Source: Acidimicrobiaceae bacterium (GTDB taxonomy: Bacteria; Actinomycetota; Acidimicrobiia; Acidimicrobiales; Aldehydirespiratoraceae). From it: 64,000 nucleotides of DNA. The stretch covers positions 11,214 through 75,213 of the forward strand of contig VYBO01000003.1 in NCBI GenBank assembly GCA_009844405.1, read 5' to 3'. Within the stretch, counting starts at the first letter, position 1. Each line of letters starts with the position of its first letter. Shown one piece after another: positions 28,697-38,930 of this stretch. Under the pieces are notes generated by a model. It did no database searches. It had not been told where the DNA came from and was given only the letters and a program-made list of their open reading frames with translations. The translations under genes were made by a program, and so were the position numbers.

Positions 28697-30205
28697 TCAC
28701 CTCATCTCGATGAGGACGTCCTGCCCGTTGACGATCCGCTTGATCGGCACCGACTTCGGCGGTGTGCCCGTGGTGCCGACGTAGGTGATCATGCCGCTGA
28801 AGCCCTCGAAGCCCTCGATCTGGGCCACGGCGTCGCCTATCTGGGCCGAGTCGGTGCAGCCGCAGTTGACGATGCCCTGGATGCCTAGCAGCAGCGAGTC
28901 TACGTAGAGGCCCATGAAGCCCTGGCTCTCCAGCACCTCGCCGTCGTTGGCGGCGGAGTACCCCTGGAGCAGGCGGTCGTTGAGGCCGCCCGGCTCGACG
29001 TTGATGTGGGGGGTGTGGACGATGCCCTCGTTGTTCTCCTCGATGGCGATGCCCGTGGCGTCGAGTGCGTCGGTGCCGATGTAGGTGATGTTGTCGAACC
29101 CGGCTCCCTCGAGCTGGCCCCTCAGCGCGGTGACCTGGTAGCCGAGCGCGGCCGAGAAGAAGGCCTCGTTGTCCTGGAGGACCTCCGACAGTTCGGCCAC
29201 CTGGGCCGAGAAGTCCGTGTCTTCGAACCACACGTAGGTGTGCTCGGCCACGATCTCGCCGCCGCCGGCCTCGAAGACCTCCTTGAAGACGTCGGGGTTG
29301 TATCCGGTGTACGGGCCGGGCTGGGTGAACACGAAGGCCCGGGTGATGCCCTGGTCGAGGGCCCACTCGGCCGCCGCCGAGGACTGGCCGTAGTCGTCGA
29401 AGGACACCAGGAACGAGTTGTTCTCGATGTCAGAGAGTGTGGGCTCGGTCGAGGCGGCCACGAAGACCGGCACCTGGCCGCCGGTGGCCTGCAGGATCGG
29501 CAGGGTGAAGTCGGCGAAGGGCGGGCCGATGAGGAAGTGCGCTCCCCAGTCGAGCAGCTGCTCGGCGGCCACGCCAGCGGTGGTGGCATCGCCGCCTACG
29601 TCCTCGACCCTCACCTCGACCGGTGACCCGTTGACCCCGCCGATGCAGTTGATCAGGTTGGCGAAGTGGGGAACCAGCTTGGAGCCGGGGATGTCGACGA
29701 AGCCGACCACGTCGCTGAAGTCCATGGCCATGCCGACCCTGATCGGCTCACCGGACGGCGCAGGCCCGCAGTTGTCGAGGTCGGCGTTCAGCGCGGCCCG
29801 GATGTCGACGGCCTGGACCATGGGCTCAGGCCCGGCCATCGCCGCCTCCGCGGCCGCGGCAGCCGCCTCCGCCGCGGCAGCCGCCTCAGCCTCAGCCGCT
29901 TCCAGCTGGGCTTCGAGTTCGGCCACGACGGCGGGGTCGATGGCTCCCTCAGCCTCGGCCGTGGCGGCCTGCAATGCAGCCTCAGCCTCAGCAGCCCTCG
30001 CGGCCGCCGCCTCAGCCTCAGCCGCCGCTTCCTGGGCCGCCGCCTCAGCCTCAGCCGCCTCAGCCTCGGCAGCCGCGGCAGCCGCCTCGGCGGCCGCGGC
30101 CTCTGCCGCGCTGGTGTCGGGGGCTGCAGGTTCCTCGTCCTCGCCGCAGCTGGCGGCGACGAGGGCCAAGACCGCTGCAAGCGCGATCACTGACTTGAAC
30201 TTCAT
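28697..30205 (-). CDS. lipoprotein substrate-binding protein of the Liv-type ABC transporter, with a long Ala/Glu linker
   Basis: Signal plus lipobox MKFKSVIALAAVLALVAASC, about 100 aa of A/E low complexity, then a type I periplasmic-binding-protein-like body. Confidence 0.85.
   Translation of the reverse strand: MKFKSVIALAAVLALVAASCGEDEEPAAPDTSAAEAAAAEAAAAAAEAEAAEAEAAAQEAAAEAEAAAARAAEAEAALQAATAEAEGAIDPAVVAELEAQLEAAEAEAAAAAEAAAAAAEAAMAGPEPMVQAVDIRAALNADLDNCGPAPSGEPIRVGMAMDFSDVVGFVDIPGSKLVPHFANLINCIGGVNGSPVEVRVEDVGGDATTAGVAAEQLLDWGAHFLIGPPFADFTLPILQATGGQVPVFVAASTEPTLSDIENNSFLVSFDDYGQSSAAAEWALDQGITRAFVFTQPGPYTGYNPDVFKEVFEAGGGEIVAEHTYVWFEDTDFSAQVAELSEVLQDNEAFFSAALGYQVTALRGQLEGAGFDNITYIGTDALDATGIAIEENNEGIVHTPHINVEPGGLNDRLLQGYSAANDGEVLESQGFMGLYVDSLLLGIQGIVNCGCTDSAQIGDAVAQIEGFEGFSGMITYVGTTGTPPKSVPIKRIVNGQDVLIEMR
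29834..30130 (-). repeat. GCCTCAGCC-type short tandem repeats encoding the Ala/Glu-rich linker
   Basis: Runs of gcctcagcctcagccgc... on the plus strand. Translated as AAEAAAAEAAAAAAEAEAAEAEAAAQEAAAEAEAAAARAAEAEAA... Confidence 0.8.
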
Positions 30206-31429: not shown

Positions 31430-31553
31430 GTGGCGTTCCCTCCTTGGCAGTAAGCGAACAGCTGGACCCCGGCGGGCCCATCCGTCCGTGTCGGCCCTGC
31501 ATTATCGCCGCCCCACCGGCCGCTTGCTCAGACGAGGCTGAAGCAATGCTCCT

Positions 31554-31569
31554 GAGTAATTTTACTCAA
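31554..31569. promoter_or_regulatory. palindrome TGAGTAA-TT-TTACTCA in the AT-rich leader of the ATPase/NTPase operon
   Basis: 7-bp perfect inverted arms, 30 nt upstream of ATG 31599. The surrounding line 31541..31600 is 24/60 G+C. Confidence 0.3.
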
Positions 31570-31598
31570 GAGCAAGTAGACACTGATATCGTGAAGGT

Positions 31599-32855
31599 AT
31601 GGCCCAGTTTCGGCGTCCCCAGGTGGAGACCCTAGTGAAGCGGCTGTCGGAGCCGCCGGGGCGCATCGTCGCGATCTTCGGACCGCGCCAGACGGGCAAG
31701 ACAATGGCTGTCGGGCAGGCTCTCGATGCCATCTCGCGTGAGAGCCGATACGTGGCGGTCGATGAGCCCGCATCGATGGATGCCCCCGGTCCCTTCGAGG
31801 AGGTCGGCAGCACAGCGTCCCTGAGACCCGCGGAGCGAGACACCGCGTGGCTTCAGCGAATCTGGGAGAGCAGTCGGCGCAAGGCTTGGGACTCGATCCG
31901 AGGCTACGTCCTGGTGCTCGACGAGATACAGAGGATCAGCGGATGGTCAGACACAGTCAAGGGCCTGTGGGACGCCGACCGTCGAAGCGGGTGCCCGATG
32001 CACGTGGTGATTCTTGGGTCTGCGCCACTGCTGATGCAGGCAGGGCTGACCGAGAGCCTCGCGGGCCGATTCGAGCCGATCCGCTTCACCCACTGGTCCT
32101 ACGCCGAGATGTCGCAGGCATTCGACTACAGCCTCGACGAGTACATCTACTTCGGCGGCTACCCCGGGGCCGCAGGCCGAAAGCGCGACGGCGCCCGGTG
32201 GACGAGGTACATCCGGGAGGCCCTTGTCGAGCCGAACATCGAGCGTGACGTTCTGGCGATGACACGGGTGGACAAGCCGGCGCTGCTGAGGAGGCTGTTC
32301 GAACTCGGCGCGCGGTACTCGGGGCAGGAGTTGTCCTACAACAAGATGCTCGGTCCACTCCAGGAAGCAGGCAACACCACGACTCTGACGCGATATCTCA
32401 AGCTGCTGTCCGATGCCGGGTTATTGACCGGGCTGCCCAAGCACACTGCGCGACCAGCAGCGGCGCGAGCCTCGACGCCGAAGCTGAACGTTCTCAACAC
32501 CGCACTGATGGCCGTCGCCTCGGGATACACGTTCGAGGAGGCCCGCGCCGACCGCTCCTACTGGGGCCGCACGGTCGAGAGCGCCGTCGGTGCCCACCTC
32601 ATCAACACGGCGTCGCCCAACACAATCGTGAGGTATTGGCGAGACGGCCCACACGAAGTGGACTTCGTTCTCCAGCGAGGCCCCAACACGGTCGCGATCG
32701 AGGTCAAGAGCGGAGCGACACCTGGTGCCCTCAGCGGCCTCTCCGAGTTCCAGCGACGCTTCAGCCCTCGCGCCGCGATCGTGGCCGGTGCTTCGGGTTT
32801 GCCACTCCATGAGTTCCTGTCATTCCCTTCCGATCACTGGATCGACTCGGCATGA
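31599..32855 (+). CDS. AAA ATPase of the AAA_14/DUF4143 type
   Basis: 418 aa. Walker A GPRQTGKT, Walker B VLVLDEIQ, and a C-terminal D...E-x-K segment HEVDFVLQRGPNTVAIEVKSG. Confidence 0.85.
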   Translation: MAQFRRPQVETLVKRLSEPPGRIVAIFGPRQTGKTMAVGQALDAISRESRYVAVDEPASMDAPGPFEEVGSTASLRPAERDTAWLQRIWESSRRKAWDSIRGYVLVLDEIQRISGWSDTVKGLWDADRRSGCPMHVVILGSAPLLMQAGLTESLAGRFEPIRFTHWSYAEMSQAFDYSLDEYIYFGGYPGAAGRKRDGARWTRYIREALVEPNIERDVLAMTRVDKPALLRRLFELGARYSGQELSYNKMLGPLQEAGNTTTLTRYLKLLSDAGLLTGLPKHTARPAAARASTPKLNVLNTALMAVASGYTFEEARADRSYWGRTVESAVGAHLINTASPNTIVRYWRDGPHEVDFVLQRGPNTVAIEVKSGATPGALSGLSEFQRRFSPRAAIVAGASGLPLHEFLSFPSDHWIDSA

Positions 32856-35800
32856 CCATCACCGTCGCTCGCACCTGCACCGAGATCCCCGCCAAGGGGA
32901 ACGGCCGCCTCGCGGCGAGCGATGCCAAGCCGCTCAGCGCCTACCGATCAACACCCGCCTACGTGCTGCTCGGCGACCCCGGCGCAGGCAAGACAACCGA
33001 GTTCCGCAGGGAGTGCGAGGAACTCGAAGACACCGCGGTGTTCGTTACAGCACGGAATTTCGTCGCCGACGTGTACTCCCCCGAGGAATTGAGCGGCCGG
33101 ACGCTCTTCATCGACGGACTTGACGAAATGCGTGCAGGCACCGCGGACGCACGAGAACCCCTCGACGAGATCCGCAGGCGGCTCGTTCGGCTCGGCCGAC
33201 CGAATGTCCGGATCTCATGTCGGGAGGCGGACTGGCTCGGCCCGAACGACCGCCGCAGCCTGGAAGAGGTCGCACCCGACGCGAGAATCACCGTGCTGCT
33301 GCTCGACGAACTGAGCGAGCGCGCCACGCACGATCTCCTCACTGAGGAGTTCGGCATCGACAATGCCGAGACATTCGAGAAAGAGGCGAGCAGTCGGGGC
33401 CTGGCCGCAATGCTGCGCAACCCCCAGACGCTCAAGCTTCTTGCGAAGGCTGTGGGGCCCGGCGGCGCCTGGCCAGAGAGTCGGCTGACTACCTTCGAAC
33501 TCGCCTGCGCCAAGATGGCGTCTGAACACAACGACGAGCACCGGGCAGTCGCTTCGGGCCAGGCACCCGAGGCCGTCCTCGATGCCGCCGGTCACCTGTG
33601 CGTCCTACTGCTGCTGTGCGGCCTGGAGGGGTTCAGGCTTGCGCCGGACGGCACCGCAGCGGACTTGCGGACTGACGGGTTCGTGTCTTTCGACGCTCTC
33701 GAAGAGGCTCACTGCGGTCGGCCTCGTGAACTTCTCCGCGGCGCGCTGTCCACGAAGCTGTTCAAGCCCGACTGCGAAACGGAACTGGTTCCCCGCCATC
33801 GCCAGATCGCCGAGTTCTTGGCAGGCCGCCATCTCGCCAAGCTCATTCGGGAAGGCATGTCGGCTCGAAGAGTCGTGAGGCGCATGACCGGTCCGAGCGA
33901 CGGACGTGTGGTCACCGTGCTGCGCGGTCTTTCGGCTTGGCTGGCGGCATACCGGGGCGAGGCGCGCCGACTGCTGATCGACGCCGACCCGGCGGGGGTT
34001 GGCCTCTACGGCGACCTCAGCGGATTCACACTCGAAGACCGGGCACTCCTGTTCAGGTCTTTGGTGGAGTTCGCTGAGCAGGGGCCGCTGTTCGGCCACG
34101 CAATGCAGGACGGCCGAGCCGACGGATATCGAGACGAGACGGCCCGGGCCTTCCGCTCCCTGGCTTCAGCCGACATGCTGGAGTCGATCAGGGGTGTGCT
34201 CCGCACCCCGGTCGGTCAGCCTCAACGCGACCGAACCACGGCTTTCGTGCTGGAGGTGCTCTCCGAGGCTGAAGAGCACGAGAAGGAGTCCCTGGCCGGG
34301 CTGGCACCCGACCTTGCGGAGATTCTGCGCGACGGCGACCGACCGTCCTGGGTCACCGTCAAGGCGCTCGACGCGTTCACCCACATCGCCTCTTCGTGCA
34401 GCGAGACCGACCAGACTCTCCTGTCGGTCCTGGATGAGATTCAAGAGGGCACCATCGCCGACCCCGGCGACCGCCTCCGCCGGGCTCTGCTGAACCATCT
34501 CTACCCAAGGGTGATCGAGCCGGCGACGCTCTGGCGCGACGCGCTCCCCCGCCCTCAAGACCACCGGCTCAGCGACCTAGGGAACTTCTGGACCCGGCAC
34601 GTCCTGAGCCGGTCGTCAGATGAACACATCGCATCTCTTCTCGACTCGCTCTGCAAGGACGCCCCGACGTTCGTACCAGCCCTGGGGAAGGCGTACCTCG
34701 ATGATCTGCCGCTTCAACTCCTCGCTCGCGCCCTGCCTGCCCTTGGAGACACGCTCGGCACCGAGCGTCTCCTCGACTGGCTCGATGTGGCCGGGCGCAC
34801 GCACGGTGCTCCCATGCGGGAGGATGAGACTCGTTCCGTCCGACAATGGCTGGAGAGCCGCCCGCAGGTGCAGAAGTCGGTGTTCCTTGCGTGGCTGCGT
34901 CGCGGCGTGGCCACAGACCCGGACAGGCCGTACCGCCATTGGTTCTGCGACGCCCTTCATCGAAGCAAGCTCCCCGAGGACTTCGGACTGTGGTGCCTCG
35001 AACAGGCCACCACCCTGGAGAACAGCGAGCCCGCTCTGGCAAGGGAACTGCTGACCCAGGCCCACGCCTCTCTGGAAGACCCGGCCGTCAGCGAGGGGCT
35101 GTCCCCCGCAGTCATGAGTCAGCGAATAGTAGGGGGCGGGCTGGCCTGCCATCTTGAGAAGCTCCGCGCCCGCCGCGCGGCCAGTCGCTCCGAGGATGGC
35201 GTTCAGGAACGCGAACTCGAAGAAGCCAGAGAACAGCGAAGGCAGGAACGGCGTCAGCGCCAAGCGGACTGGGCCGGGAACCTCAGCGCGGAACTCGACG
35301 ACCTACGCAACAACCGGTTCTTCGCGCCGAATCTGAGCACTCTGGCGAAGGTCTATCTCGGCATGTTCATGGATTTCGACAGTGACGCGTCTCCTCGACA
35401 ACGTATCGGCCAACTCGTTGGTGGCGACGAGACCCTTGTCGATGCCGTCATGGTTTCGATCCTGGGGGCCATCTCGCGAGACGACCTTCCTGAGGCCGAT
35501 GAGACGATTGCGCTCCACCTGAAGTCGCAGCACTCTCCGCTGGCCTACCCAGTGCTTGCGAGCCTGCACCTGCACAACGAGGAGGATCCCGCCCGTCTGG
35601 ACGGAATCAGCAGGGATCGCAAGCGGAAGGCTCTAGCGATCCACTACTGCGTTCCGAGCGACGATGAGTTCCCGCCCTGGCACAACCGCTGGCTCCAGCA
35701 GGAGCCCGAGTTGGTGCTGGATGTTCTCTACCGGTGCGCGGCGCCGGCGGTGCGAGCCGGCCATGAGTTCGTGCCCTGCCTCAACGTCCTCGACCGTCTC

Positions 35801-37096
35801 GGCCGGTGCGACGCCCCGGTCCCCGTGTGGGCACTCGACGAGAGCACCGAACTGTTCGAGACTCGCTCCCCGGCGCCGCTTCTCGACGGTCATGACGACT
35901 TGGTCCACGCCACCACGCTGCGGCTGCTCGAAGCGGTCCCCGCGCGGGCCTCGAACAAGCAGATGACCCTGCTCGACAGTCTGCTCGCTCGCGCGATGCA
36001 GCATCCCGACAGAATCTCGCTCCGAGAGTTGGCCGCAAGGAAGCTGTCGCTGCAGAGTCTGGCGGTCAGCCAGCGGACGCGCTGGCTGACCGTTGATGCG
36101 CTGCTTTCCGACCACGCGAACCTTGGACCACTGAAGGAATACGTACGCCACAACGAACGGAGAGTCAAACATCTTGCAGAGTTTCTGCGCCGCAGCTCGC
36201 ACCGCGACAACATGCACCAATCGGCCCTGGCCGGCGTGCGTGAACCGGAGGTGCTCAGAGACGCGATCGAGATCCTTGGTGCCTCGTTCGGACCAGTCGA
36301 ATGGGGCGGCGGCTACATCACGCTCGGGATGGAGATGTCGGAACTCTTGGGGGTGCTGATCGAACAACTCGGCACCTTGGCGGGCAACGACACAGACCGA
36401 GCCTTCAGGGATCTGATCGCCAATCCTTGGCTGGAGCGCTGGCGAGACCGGCTCACCATGGCGCATGAGCGACAGCGCGTCGTCCACCGGGACGCGTCCT
36501 ACAGCCATCCCAGCATCGAGGAAGTGCAGCGCATGCTCCGGAACGAGGCGCCAACCTGCGCGGCCGACCTGGCAGCGCTCCTTCAGGACCGAATCGCCGA
36601 CATCGCGGCCAACATCAGAGGCAGCAACGACAATCCATGGCGGAACTACTGGAAGGACGACCGACGACGGCCCCCAGCCGAACCCAAACATGAGGACTCG
36701 TGCCGTGACGCCCTTCTTGCGGACCTCAAGAGTCGGCTGCCCGCCGAGGTCGACGCCGCGCCGGAGGGTCGCTACGCCGCGGACAACCGAGCCGACATAC
36801 GCGCCAACTGTTCCGGGTTCAACGTGCCCATCGAGATCAAGAAGAACTCGCACCCCGACCTATGGACCGCCATCCGCAGGCAACTCCTCGGCAAGTACAC
36901 TACGGACCCGGCAACGTCGGGCTACGGCATCTACCTCGTGCTGTGGTTCGCCCCCAACGCGACCAAGACCCCGCCCGACGGCAATCGACCCGACATCCCC
37001 CAGGCGCTGAGGGCGAAGTTGGAGCAGGAGCTGACCGCTGATGAGGCTCGCAAGATCTCGGTGATCGTCATGGACGTCACCAAGCCGGGCTCGTAG
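32852..37096 (+). CDS. 1414-aa NACHT-like (STAND-type) P-loop NTPase with a long helical region and a C-terminal PD-(D/E)xK-like nuclease motif
   Basis: The ATG overlaps the upstream stop (ATGA 32852..32855). GDPGAGKT (aa 41-48), LFIDGLDE (aa 85-92), an Arg/Glu coiled coil near aa 770-810, and the C-terminal AADNRADIRANCSGFNVPIEIKK. That it is a real CDS is secure; the functional call is tentative. Confidence 0.7.
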   Translation: MTITVARTCTEIPAKGNGRLAASDAKPLSAYRSTPAYVLLGDPGAGKTTEFRRECEELEDTAVFVTARNFVADVYSPEELSGRTLFIDGLDEMRAGTADAREPLDEIRRRLVRLGRPNVRISCREADWLGPNDRRSLEEVAPDARITVLLLDELSERATHDLLTEEFGIDNAETFEKEASSRGLAAMLRNPQTLKLLAKAVGPGGAWPESRLTTFELACAKMASEHNDEHRAVASGQAPEAVLDAAGHLCVLLLLCGLEGFRLAPDGTAADLRTDGFVSFDALEEAHCGRPRELLRGALSTKLFKPDCETELVPRHRQIAEFLAGRHLAKLIREGMSARRVVRRMTGPSDGRVVTVLRGLSAWLAAYRGEARRLLIDADPAGVGLYGDLSGFTLEDRALLFRSLVEFAEQGPLFGHAMQDGRADGYRDETARAFRSLASADMLESIRGVLRTPVGQPQRDRTTAFVLEVLSEAEEHEKESLAGLAPDLAEILRDGDRPSWVTVKALDAFTHIASSCSETDQTLLSVLDEIQEGTIADPGDRLRRALLNHLYPRVIEPATLWRDALPRPQDHRLSDLGNFWTRHVLSRSSDEHIASLLDSLCKDAPTFVPALGKAYLDDLPLQLLARALPALGDTLGTERLLDWLDVAGRTHGAPMREDETRSVRQWLESRPQVQKSVFLAWLRRGVATDPDRPYRHWFCDALHRSKLPEDFGLWCLEQATTLENSEPALARELLTQAHASLEDPAVSEGLSPAVMSQRIVGGGLACHLEKLRARRAASRSEDGVQERELEEAREQRRQERRQRQADWAGNLSAELDDLRNNRFFAPNLSTLAKVYLGMFMDFDSDASPRQRIGQLVGGDETLVDAVMVSILGAISRDDLPEADETIALHLKSQHSPLAYPVLASLHLHNEEDPARLDGISRDRKRKALAIHYCVPSDDEFPPWHNRWLQQEPELVLDVLYRCAAPAVRAGHEFVPCLNVLDRLGRCDAPVPVWALDESTELFETRSPAPLLDGHDDLVHATTLRLLEAVPARASNKQMTLLDSLLARAMQHPDRISLRELAARKLSLQSLAVSQRTRWLTVDALLSDHANLGPLKEYVRHNERRVKHLAEFLRRSSHRDNMHQSALAGVREPEVLRDAIEILGASFGPVEWGGGYITLGMEMSELLGVLIEQLGTLAGNDTDRAFRDLIANPWLERWRDRLTMAHERQRVVHRDASYSHPSIEEVQRMLRNEAPTCAADLAALLQDRIADIAANIRGSNDNPWRNYWKDDRRRPPAEPKHEDSCRDALLADLKSRLPAEVDAAPEGRYAADNRADIRANCSGFNVPIEIKKNSHPDLWTAIRRQLLGKYTTDPATSGYGIYLVLWFAPNATKTPPDGNRPDIPQALRAKLEQELTADEARKISVIVMDVTKPGS

Positions 37097-37201: not shown

Positions 37202-38079
37202 GTGGGGCAGTCGCACACCGCGGACGAGGTTCTCGATCTAGCAGGGCAGGTTCGACAACCAACAATTGAGGGCCTACCCGACGGCTATCGATACGGAGTC
37301 ACGCGCTACGCCGACGTAATCCTGCAAGAGGCGTTCCGTAACCGATTCGACGACTTGCAGGTGGCGCTTGAGGACTTCCGTCCGACGTTGGACGAACTCC
37401 GAGCGGGCGGCGGAGGCCGGACCGTCTTTGTGAGACGATTCGACGAATCGCTCGCGAACATGATCGACGAGTCCGACAGCGGCAACGAACACACGGATCG
37501 AACGATTTGGGCAAGCAGAACATCACCATCGAGAAGGCCATCGGGTTCGACGGCCAAACCGAACCCGTCTCGAAGGTCCGCGGCCATGAGATCGACATGT
37601 TCGGGAAAGGCTCGCTGGCGAAGCCATTCCCGGGCGTGGCCGTGGAGATGGAGTGGAACAACAAGGATCCCTTCTTCGACCGCGACCTGATCAACTTCCA
37701 GGCTCTCCACCATGCGGGAGCGATCGCCGTTGGAGTGATTGTCACCCGCGGGCCCAATCTCCAGAATCTGATCTCCGGAGTGATTCGCAGCCAGGACGGC
37801 GGCTTCAAATACGGCGCTTCGTCAACTCACTGGGACAAGCTCGAGCCCCGCGTGAACCTGGGCGGTGGCGGCGAGTGCCCGCTGCTGCTGATCGGTATCG
37901 AGCCGGACAGGATCGATGGCATCGGACTCGCCCACAAAGTTAGGGCGAAACTCGACGAGGCCGAGGCACTCAAGGGGTCATGGCGGGACGCATACTCGAA
38001 GTGGAGCGACGCCAAACCGGTCTACGAGGCCCTCCGCGCCGAAGCACTAGCAATGATGCCGCCTCTTGCTGAGCAGTAA
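37202..38079 (+). pseudogene. frameshifted BamHI/BglII/BstYI-family type II restriction endonuclease
   Basis: The C-terminal 190 codons (frame 1, from 37507) carry GHEIDMFGK...VAVEMEWNNKDPFFDRDLINF...AVGVIVTRG, colinear with the BglII/BamHI catalytic core. The matching N-terminal ~100 codons (ADVILQEAF...FVRRFDESLANMIDES) are in frame 2 from 37202. The frames switch around 37440..37511, near a TTTGGG run. Confidence 0.55.
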
Positions 38080-38090
38080 CAGCCAGTGGA

Positions 38091-38930
38091 TCAGCTGTAC
38101 GCGGCGTAACGCTTGGCCCGCGGCTCGACATCGTCATCGGCCTCCAGCCCCCAAGATGTCCAACCCGGGCGTGAGTACCGGGCGAACAACTCCAAGTAAG
38201 GGCCGGGAGAGCAGGCCTCAATGATGTCGTATTGCTCGTCAGGCTTGCGCGAGTGCTCCCTCTTGCGGGTCTCAATCATGTTCACCTGTCGGCGGCCCGG
38301 CGGTAGCGTCCGCATGCTGCCTCGTACGCCGAACAGGATGACCTCCGTTACGTTTCGGAAGTAGAAGCCGACGTCGCGGCCATCAGGGCCACCGTCCTTG
38401 CGGCGTTTGGCCCACACCAGGTTGGACTTGTAGACGAAACCCCACGACTCCATCACCGCGAGGCCGTCGGCTATCAGAGCGTTGGGCACCCACAGGTAGA
38501 GATGGGCCTGCTCGGCAACAATCTCCGCAATTGGCAGAGCACGGATCTCGGCGGTTGTCATCGTGTCATAACGCGACAACCGACGATGCTCCGGGGCGAC
38601 CTTCCCCGTGCGGTTCATGAAGCGCCAAGGCGGATCGGCCAGCAGCGTCGAGAACGAGCGGCCTGCGAGTCGCCGCAAGTCATCAGCGGCGTCGCCTGAA
38701 TTGCCATTGTCCCGCGATGCGAGCCTGCCACGCGGCTTGGGCACCACACGTATCTCGTGCCCAAGCACATCGGCGAGACGCGAAATGGTCGATACCTGCG
38801 GGTTGTGACCGTTACCGCCAAGAAGCCGCCGAACCGAAGCAGGCTGAGTATCCGCGAGCCGGGCAAGCTCAGCCTTCGATACACCCGCCCTCCGTCGGGC
38901 CTGGTCGAGTTCTCTGGGAAGGTCGGTCAT
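38091..38930 (-). CDS. MT-A70-family DNA N6-adenine methyltransferase with an N-terminal XRE-type HTH
   Basis: 279 aa. HTH AGVSKAELARLADTQPASVRRLL, catalytic LLADPPWRF, then YLWVPNALI and HSRKPDEQYDIIE. Confidence 0.85.
   Translation of the reverse strand: MTDLPRELDQARRRAGVSKAELARLADTQPASVRRLLGGNGHNPQVSTISRLADVLGHEIRVVPKPRGRLASRDNGNSGDAADDLRRLAGRSFSTLLADPPWRFMNRTGKVAPEHRRLSRYDTMTTAEIRALPIAEIVAEQAHLYLWVPNALIADGLAVMESWGFVYKSNLVWAKRRKDGGPDGRDVGFYFRNVTEVILFGVRGSMRTLPPGRRQVNMIETRKREHSRKPDEQYDIIEACSPGPYLELFARYSRPGWTSWGLEADDDVEPRAKRYAAYS

Follow-up and report, generated by a model that had tools for sequence, protein, structure and literature searches.

A conserved, translationally coupled pair of a PDC-S01-type ATPase and an EruA-like NACHT/STAND protein, a candidate two-gene anti-phage operon

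Among the defence candidates of prokaryotes, PDC-S01 is reported to rank fourth in frequency (PMC12988326); it is a still unvalidated candidate for phage defence that consists of one gene, in which an ATPase and a PD-(D/E)xK domain are fused. EruA and HyoA are two protein families modelled in NCBIfam (NF058535, NACHT domain-containing antiphage protein EruA, with a curated cutoff of 1000 bits, and NF058534, HyoA, with a cutoff of 1200 bits). Here we analyse a locus in which a PDC-S01-type ATPase gene (gene 1) is directly followed by a gene for an EruA-like NACHT/STAND protein (gene 2). It lies in a stretch of 64,000 nucleotides (nt) from an Acidimicrobiaceae bacterium (assembly GCA_009844405.1, contig VYBO01000003.1, positions 11,214 to 75,213 of the forward strand), hereafter the window, and its main features are:

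31547..31574, + strand: AT-rich palindrome TGCTCCTGAGTAATTTTACTCAAGAGCA, ending 24 nt before the gene 1 ATG
31553..31568, + strand: palindrome core TGAGTAA-TT-TTACTCA (TGAGTAATTTTACTCA), the sole match in the 64 kb window, with 0.01 expected
31599..32855, + strand: gene 1, 418 amino acids (aa), ATG start, AAA+ ATPase of the PDC-S01 type, bearing a PD-(D/E)xK domain (DUF4143) and a putative winged helix
32852..37096, + strand: gene 2, 1414 aa, ATG start, EruA-like NACHT/STAND NTPase with an α-solenoid and a predicted C-terminal nuclease domain
32852..32855, + strand: ATGA overlap, visible in the sequence itself, of the TGA stop of gene 1 with the ATG start of gene 2

The junction reads ggcATGAcc, with four bases common to the end of gene 1 and the beginning of gene 2, and the list of open reading frames (ORFs) gives the same limits, exactly as an initial annotation made from the sequence alone had it. 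That annotation took the pair for a candidate undescribed defence module. The two genes do form a conserved, translationally coupled unit for which defence is plausible, but their families are already described, gene 1 belonging to PDC-S01 (PADLOC) and gene 2 to the wider EruA family (NCBIfam).

Gene 1 resembles PDC-S01 over its full length (PADLOC PDLC04791, E 1.2e-155, aa 4-414 on profile positions 2-393 of 395), with the same Pfam domains, the same Walker, helix-turn-helix (HTH)-like and PD-(D/E)xK motifs and the same upstream palindrome. It differs in that PDC-S01 is defined as a single-gene system, whereas gene 1 is coupled through its 4-nt overlap to a 1414-aa STAND protein, and in a 20-residue insertion (aa 60-79) that is missing from more than 60% of its stand-alone relatives. 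Gene 2, which has more than 3130 homologues, shares with EruA a collinear, full-length homology, with an N-terminal NACHT P-loop, a long helical middle and the same C-terminal domain, but only ∼25-30% sequence identity; the bona fide EruA genes examined stand alone, with neither a DUF4143 ATPase gene nor the palindrome, while the gene 2 clade is preceded by gene 1. Against NF058535, gene 2 obtains 815.5 bits (E 1.2e-244; best stretch aa 26-982 versus profile positions 16-924, plus a second stretch) and the gene 2 members of the paired clade 758-868 bits, all under the cutoff, with the clade members P0045 and P0120 aligning to positions 17-1318 of 1318. By comparison, a protein encoded on the Bradyrhizobium sp. 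CW1 plasmid pCW1_1, ∼30% identical to gene 2, scores 1189.6 bits and is therefore a bona fide EruA. Since the homology is full-length but 815.5 bits fall short of 1000, we regard the gene 2 clade as a sister clade of EruA and not as its equivalog. HyoA is a more distant sister family that has the C-terminal domain in common with gene 2, along with portions of the helical region (E 2.5e-40; P0002 aa 1166-1411 on profile positions 1184-1429 of 1430), the score of 138 bits being far below the cutoff of 1200.

Gene 2 also shares with Avs4, NLRC4 and NLRP3 a STAND/NACHT NTPase and a large helical-repeat sensor, with a nuclease effector, in gene 2 a predicted one, within the same polypeptide. In Avs proteins the effector is usually N-terminal, followed by a central STAND module and a C-terminal sensor in a single gene, and STANDs of the Avs/NLR type come without a partner gene. 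The NTPase of gene 2, in contrast, starts at ∼aa 30, its predicted nuclease follows the sensor at the C-terminus, and a second, coupled gene encodes another ATPase with a nuclease-type domain. The pair adds to the STAND architectures one whose predicted nuclease stands at the C-terminus and whose ATPase-nuclease partner is encoded in trans.

The combination of the two families appears to be new and unnamed. In line with the initial annotation, no named system with this two-gene composition was found in PADLOC 2.0.0, NCBIfam 20.0 or the searchable literature; our literature search found no publication linking DUF4143 with NACHT in a defence system, and NCBIfam gave no partner model for gene 1, nor one for the neighbours of bona fide EruA (an "EruB"). 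PADLOC 2.0.0, which recognizes gene 1, gave no match for gene 2.

Domain architecture of the two proteins

The initial annotation described both proteins as P-loop NTPases with a restriction-endonuclease-like D...ExK segment. All the Walker and D...ExK motifs it named are present and conserved, and as they are conserved across clades they are not chance matches. They map, with the domains that contain them, as follows:

31680..31703, + strand: gene 1 Walker A GPRQTGKT (aa 28-35), with G28, P29, R30, Q31, G33, K34 and T35 invariant in 16 paired-clade sequences
31908..31931, + strand: gene 1 Walker B VLVLDEIQ (aa 104-111), with D108, E109 and I110 invariant
32652..32714, + strand: gene 1 PD-(D/E)xK core HEVDFVLQRGPNTVAIEVKSG (aa 352-372), with E368 and K370 invariant and D355 nearly so
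32939..34051, + strand: gene 2 NACHT/STAND NTPase module (∼aa 30-400), from an AlphaFold2 model and Foldseek
32972..32995, + strand: gene 2 Walker A GDPGAGKT (aa 41-48, with K47)
33104..33127, + strand: gene 2 NACHT-style Walker B LFIDGLDE (aa 85-92)
34052..36391, + strand: gene 2 α-solenoid, HEAT/ARM-like (∼aa 401-1180), the presumed sensor
36392..37093, + strand: gene 2 C-terminal PD-(D/E)xK-fold domain (aa 1181-1414), α-β-β-β-α-β in the model
36764..36841, + strand: gene 2 catalytic candidates E1305, D1315, E1328 and K1330, with motif AADNRADIRANCSGFNVPIEIKK at aa 1309-1331

Gene 1 contains the Pfam domains AAA_14 (aa 22-171) and DUF4143 (PF13635, E 5.9e-25, aa 215-372), and its Walker A is also retained by 75 stand-alone relatives. 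DUF4143 (COG1373) has been placed in the PD-(D/E)XK superfamily (PMC3424549), and this match, together with the conserved D355, E368 and K370, assigns the C-terminus of gene 1 to that superfamily; a weak NCBIfam match of aa 315-371 is to the YraN family. Gene 1 further carries an HTH-like segment, AGNTTTL.RYL..L, which may be a recognition helix and is invariant in the paired gene 1 relatives and conserved in the stand-alone ones.

No Pfam model matches gene 2 above threshold (the NACHT model is unmatched, and AAA_22 reaches 22.9 bits against a cutoff of 27), and searches of PDB chain sequences with both proteins returned spurious matches only. We therefore turn to structural models of gene 2, which were built with AlphaFold2 in two pieces (residues 1-1200 and 1101-1414) from a 36-sequence alignment covering both clades. 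NACHT NTPases are marked by a Walker A of the form GxxxxGK[ST] and a Walker B of the form hhhhDGhDE with extra acidic residues. Gene 2 has both motifs, and the model of residues 1-1200 (mean predicted local distance difference test score, pLDDT, 80.5) suggests a succession of nucleotide-binding, helical and winged-helix domains resembling that of solved STANDs: Foldseek retrieves phage-portal-bound Avs4 (8dgf, E 4.6e-7), NLRC4 (8fw2, 7.1e-6) and the NLRP3 NACHT (8ri2, 5.5e-5, template modelling score on the target 0.49). Of the ∼1100-aa helical region in which the initial annotation recognized no motif, the first part thus belongs to a complete NACHT/STAND module that takes up the first ∼400 aa of the protein, and only aa 400-1180 remain as a helical stretch, modelled as an all-helical α-solenoid similar to CAND1, importins and exportins in Foldseek. 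This solenoid is the least conserved part of gene 2 (0.38-0.58 versus 0.6-0.75).

The C-terminal piece (mean pLDDT 88) is predicted to have the core topology of PD-(D/E)xK nucleases, with a helix (1281-1295), strands 1301-1304, 1316-1320 and 1323-1331, a second helix (1340-1349) and a last strand (1359-1365); in the model, D1315 stands just ahead of the second strand and E1328-x-K1330 within the third. The top Foldseek matches are all PD-(D/E)xK enzymes, namely Hjc (probability 0.96), Cdn1, SwaI, PaqCI, Bax1, Mus81 and the HerA-DUF4297 nuclease, in keeping with the restriction-endonuclease-like motif noted at the outset for this terminus, though none of these matches has E ≤ 1e-3. The domain occurs in 1859 representative clusters, nearly always at the end of proteins of ∼1350-1450 aa. 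K47, D88, D91, E92, E1305, D1315, E1328 and K1330 are invariant in the paired clade and in the distant bona fide EruA clade alike.

Pairing, upstream palindrome and spread of the cassette

A scan of one genome per species yielded 404 loci with a gene 2 relative, of which we analysed the best 80 (L001-L080). At 79 of these, gene 2 is immediately preceded by a full-length gene 1 homologue (60-80% identity), and the large majority of the 79 retain the overlap, as ATGA or GTGA. The paired loci come from at least six taxa (Acidimicrobiia, Chloroflexota/Dehalococcoidia, Latescibacterota, Vicinamibacterales, Gammaproteobacteria and Tectimicrobiota). Conversely, when metagenomes were scanned with a gene 1 alignment, relatives at ≥56% identity had gene 2 immediately downstream in all cases with enough contig, while ∼70 relatives at 48-54% identity had no gene 2 downstream. 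The two proteins also diverge together: across 77 intact pairs their pairwise identities correlate (Pearson r = 0.80, Mantel p = 0.001), with a mean of 63% for gene 1 and 44% for gene 2, whose two ends, the NTPase and the nuclease part, vary less than the solenoid between them.

The remaining locus, L062 (7956..12278), has a gene 2 homologue without gene 1, and an unannotated 232-aa ORF stops 5 nt ahead of it. The gene 2 matches at L005 and L049 hold in-frame stops, and that at L076 spans query residues 1-1232 only. These may be pseudogenes or assembly errors.

Outside the paired clade, both families are found as autonomous genes. The neighbours of the stand-alone gene 1 relatives are mixed, including type I HsdR, kinase and glycosidase genes, and such relatives also occur on Coxiella, Thermus, Collinsella and Bacteroides plasmids, among them proteins annotated as "ATP-binding protein" with 45-48% identity on the Coxiella burnetii plasmids NC_009726.1, NC_010258.1 and NC_011526.1 and in Thermus oshimai (NC_019387.1). 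At L135 (7188..10340) and L133 (7245..10280), stand-alone relatives with ∼50% identity adjoin type I HsdR genes, and at L135 there is a 4-nt overlap between the HsdR ORF and the stop of the ATPase gene, a hint that the PDC-S01-like ATPase family may couple to varied large defence partners. Standing alone is likewise the rule for the bona fide EruA genes examined and for the homologues on proteobacterial plasmids (L083-L085 among them); one of them, in Methylocystis (L085, 1..4926), lies directly downstream of Mu-transposase-C, TniB and TniQ genes and appears to be cargo of a Tn7-like transposon. As both families are autonomous elsewhere, the pair is best described as two units joined into a tight operon. 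This joining possibly happened more than once, divergent pairs being found at L162 and at L166 (1697..7011; IMGVR_UViG_3300037067_027608, a contig classed as viral), the latter with the palindrome, a gene 1 homologue of 50% identity and an EruA-like gene of 29% identity.

Nearly all paired loci have the palindrome core ahead of gene 1, with the consensus ATTACGCTATTGAGTAA-nn-TTACTCAATAGCGTAAT and a median end ∼30 nt before the start codon. Among the gene 1 homologues of L001-L080 and L086-L166, the core also precedes stand-alone PDC-S01-like genes, where the palindrome often takes the form of three half-site elements behind a TTGAC-like hexamer. Over 77 aligned sequences the core is invariant, and the outer arms vary yet stay complementary: the share of paired cells is 84%, compared with 31-42% in slid controls, and double-sided changes number 137, against 50 ± 6 in shuffles, with none of 500 shuffles reaching the observed value. 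The region is predicted to fold as a hairpin. G-T wobbles on the + strand (GT/TG) number 78 against 43 for AC/CA, an asymmetry that is suggestive of the + strand but, as the sequences are related, does not decide between an RNA hairpin and a DNA operator. Rfam has no match for the palindrome region or anywhere else in the window, and we found no published description of a TGAGTAA-N2-TTACTCA palindrome. We propose that it may be a promoter-overlapping operator to which the winged helix of the gene 1 protein binds or, alternatively, a 5' hairpin; gene 2 would have come under its control upon capture downstream of gene 1. The conserved overlap, the co-divergence and the shared palindrome indicate that a sub-branch of PDC-S01 is locked to a relative of EruA, a NACHT protein named as antiphage, and this provides a testable hypothesis on PDC-S01 function and regulation.

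The palindrome, gene 1 and gene 2 behave as a cassette, which is found elsewhere in unrelated contexts that diverge right past the gene 2 stop. Across the loci compared, no conserved element or second palindrome was found downstream of gene 2, and because of this and of the divergence right past the stop we set aside the model of a simple transposon bounded by inverted repeats. The cassette begins within ∼10 nt of the 3' end of a transfer-messenger RNA (tmRNA) gene in three Acidimicrobiia genomes (L014 6300..6687, L016 1146..1532 and L017 6301..6686), which is a classical integration site of genomic islands. Nearly all of the best 80 of the 404 loci are from metagenome-assembled genomes, many with the names of sponge symbionts (Poriferisocius, Spongiisocius, Poriferisodalis, Aldehydirespirator); these names and the range of at least six taxa suggest, for this subset, that the cassette spreads horizontally within the sponge microbiome.

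The evolution of the window's own copy can be followed against its syntenic relative L001 (31.5-36.9 kb of the window compared with 6.7-12.1 kb of L001). Nucleotide identity is 89-93% in the flanks and 85-93% in the nuclease end of gene 2 and the restriction-modification (R-M) genes that follow, with the deepest trough, at 55-70%, in the NTPase and solenoid of gene 2. The number of synonymous substitutions per site (dS) is 0.86 for gene 1, ∼1.0 (up to 1.08) for the NTPase and solenoid of gene 2 and 0.49 for its nuclease end, compared with 0.05-0.33 for the flanking genes and 0.81 for the methyltransferase gene. Purifying selection acts on the two genes, as their ratios of non-synonymous to synonymous substitutions (dN/dS) show (about 0.14 for gene 1, and for gene 2 0.23-0.29). 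As the dS of the pair is far above that of the flanks, its alleles are older than the surrounding genome, which fits, and points to, an exchange of alleles at a fixed chromosomal locus. Unrelated phyla that share a sponge habitat carry the one cassette, whose alleles show signs of having been exchanged in place on the chromosome.

Possible functions of the pair

A defence role for the pair is likely, and we consider it somewhat more likely than not that the locus is a horizontally mobile two-gene anti-phage operon built from two units that also occur alone. In such an operon, the variable solenoid of the gene 2 protein would bind a phage-derived ligand, by analogy with Avs and NLR proteins, the NACHT module would drive NTP-dependent oligomerization, and oligomerization would switch on the C-terminal PD-(D/E)xK nuclease, which would degrade DNA and abort the infection. 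Gene 1 would supply the promoter and the palindromic operator, its own winged helix would bind the operator and so autoregulate the operon, and the conserved 4-nt overlap would fix the ratio in which its product and that of gene 2 are made. The two proteins may then act as a functional pair, perhaps through physical contact, the gene 1 protein serving as a second ATP-driven nuclease or DNA sensor alongside the STAND protein, or as its gate.

Several observations weigh against this account. On the side of gene 2, the protein scores below the EruA equivalog cutoff, and a literature search that included the DefensePredictor and STAND-survey papers did not find the source publication for the names EruA and HyoA, so that the EruA annotation is that of the NCBIfam description alone; the structural matches to its nuclease fold are consistent but statistically weak, the best E being 0.068. 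On the side of gene 1, PDC-S01 has the status of a candidate only, and one representative gave E. coli B no protection against T4, T5 and T7 (bioRxiv 10.1101/2024.09.26.614923). The defence phenotype of this clade is one that we infer; EruA genes and most PDC-S01 relatives occur alone, and L062 has gene 2 without gene 1. Finally, the nearest neighbours of the pair are mostly metabolic and not defence genes, so that a defence-island signal is not established: among the 146 nearest-neighbour ORFs of the 79 paired loci there are five DNA methyltransferases, two BglII restriction endonucleases, two AbiEii and two transposases, as raw counts.

A stronger dependence of one protein on the other is possible, if a good deal more tentative than the operon as such. 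The gene 1 protein would here be an obligate partner of the STAND receptor, loading or activating an EruA-like oligomer on DNA or guarding it, and the palindrome would be the site of autoregulation. The stand-alone forms of both EruA and PDC-S01 mean that an interaction is not required in principle; if it were nonetheless the case in this clade, the pair would represent a new kind of two-component STAND system and offer the first functional handle on PDC-S01.

The opposite case, in which two autonomous systems of the PDC-S01 and EruA types are co-transcribed without interplay and the overlap is a compaction of the mobile cassette, strikes us as rather unlikely. Both families are indeed common as stand-alone genes (the EruA clade at L083-L085, the PDC-S01 relatives of 48-54% identity in varied contexts), and both proteins of the pair retain every catalytic motif. 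However, independent systems in defence islands normally shuffle, and such shuffling is not seen in this pair, which co-occurs near-absolutely across several phyla (79 of 80 loci), keeps its 4-nt overlap, co-diverges, and recurs in the divergent lineages of L162 and L166.

Less probable again is a role of gene 1 mainly as a transcriptional autoregulator of, or an antitoxin-like restraint on, a toxic gene 2 nuclease, which would bind the palindrome and perhaps also the STAND protein until relieved by infection or DNA damage. In antitoxin/toxin and regulator/effector pairs, one partner typically has an upstream, translationally coupled position like that of gene 1. The palindrome lies across the likely promoter and accompanies gene 1 family-wide, and gene 1 is the more conserved of the two genes (63% versus 44%) and has a conserved HTH-like segment with invariant residues. 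Yet stand-alone EruA-type proteins need no gene 1-like partner, stand-alone gene 1 relatives keep the palindrome with nothing downstream to regulate, and the intact ATPase and nuclease motifs of gene 1 would be superfluous in a pure repressor.

Very improbable, lastly, is a non-defence role in which the palindrome and the gene 1 nuclease form a selfish mobile unit that cuts its own hairpin or cruciform and carries gene 2 as cargo, or in which the pair serves DNA repair or maintenance: the cassette is bounded by the palindrome on its left and the gene 2 stop on its right, sits in many unrelated contexts with few adjacent integrases or transposases (two transposase matches in the 146 ORFs) and at tmRNA 3' ends in three loci, the PDC-S01 representative failed its phage test, and the covariation of the arms is easier to reconcile with a structured DNA or RNA than with a simple operator. 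However, the far end has neither a second palindrome nor any repeat, we saw no duplication of the target site, and gene 2 has an immune-STAND architecture and a closest named relative annotated as antiphage.

Neighbouring genes in the window

The G+C content is 0.62-0.66 across 31-39 kb of the window, against ∼0.70 in the flanks, in agreement with the lower-GC island reported at the outset. The genes flanking this island are housekeeping genes (a HAD-family hydrolase, a glyoxalase and RNase HII). Directly downstream of the pair lie the two genes of a type II R-M locus:

37202..38079, + strand: BglII-like restriction endonuclease gene, frame broken near 37511
38091..38930, - strand: HTH and MT-A70 methyltransferase gene, intact

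The R-M locus that the initial annotation placed here therefore exists, but its endonuclease is frameshifted: relative to the intact orthologues in L001 and L002 (292 aa), one nt of a G run is missing (TTTGGG-CAAGC versus TTTGGGGCAAGC). Either the R-M system is decaying and its methylase has been orphaned, or the break is an assembly error in the homopolymer. We rejected the R-M genes as a part of the two-gene module because, of the 80 related loci, only L001 and L002 have them; a defence context beside R-M genes, taken initially as the classic setting of the pair, is limited to the lineage of the window, the neighbours elsewhere being mostly metabolic.

No tRNA genes were found between 20 and 50 kb in the window, and scans of the locus for σ70 and terminator consensus sequences gave no more matches than expected by chance. 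Upstream of the pair, at 28697..30205 on the - strand, a 502-aa ORF has a signal-peptide-like start followed by ∼110 residues that are nearly all alanine or glutamate (AAAEAAAAAAEAEAAEAEAAAQEAAAEAEAAA...), with an ordinary-looking remainder.

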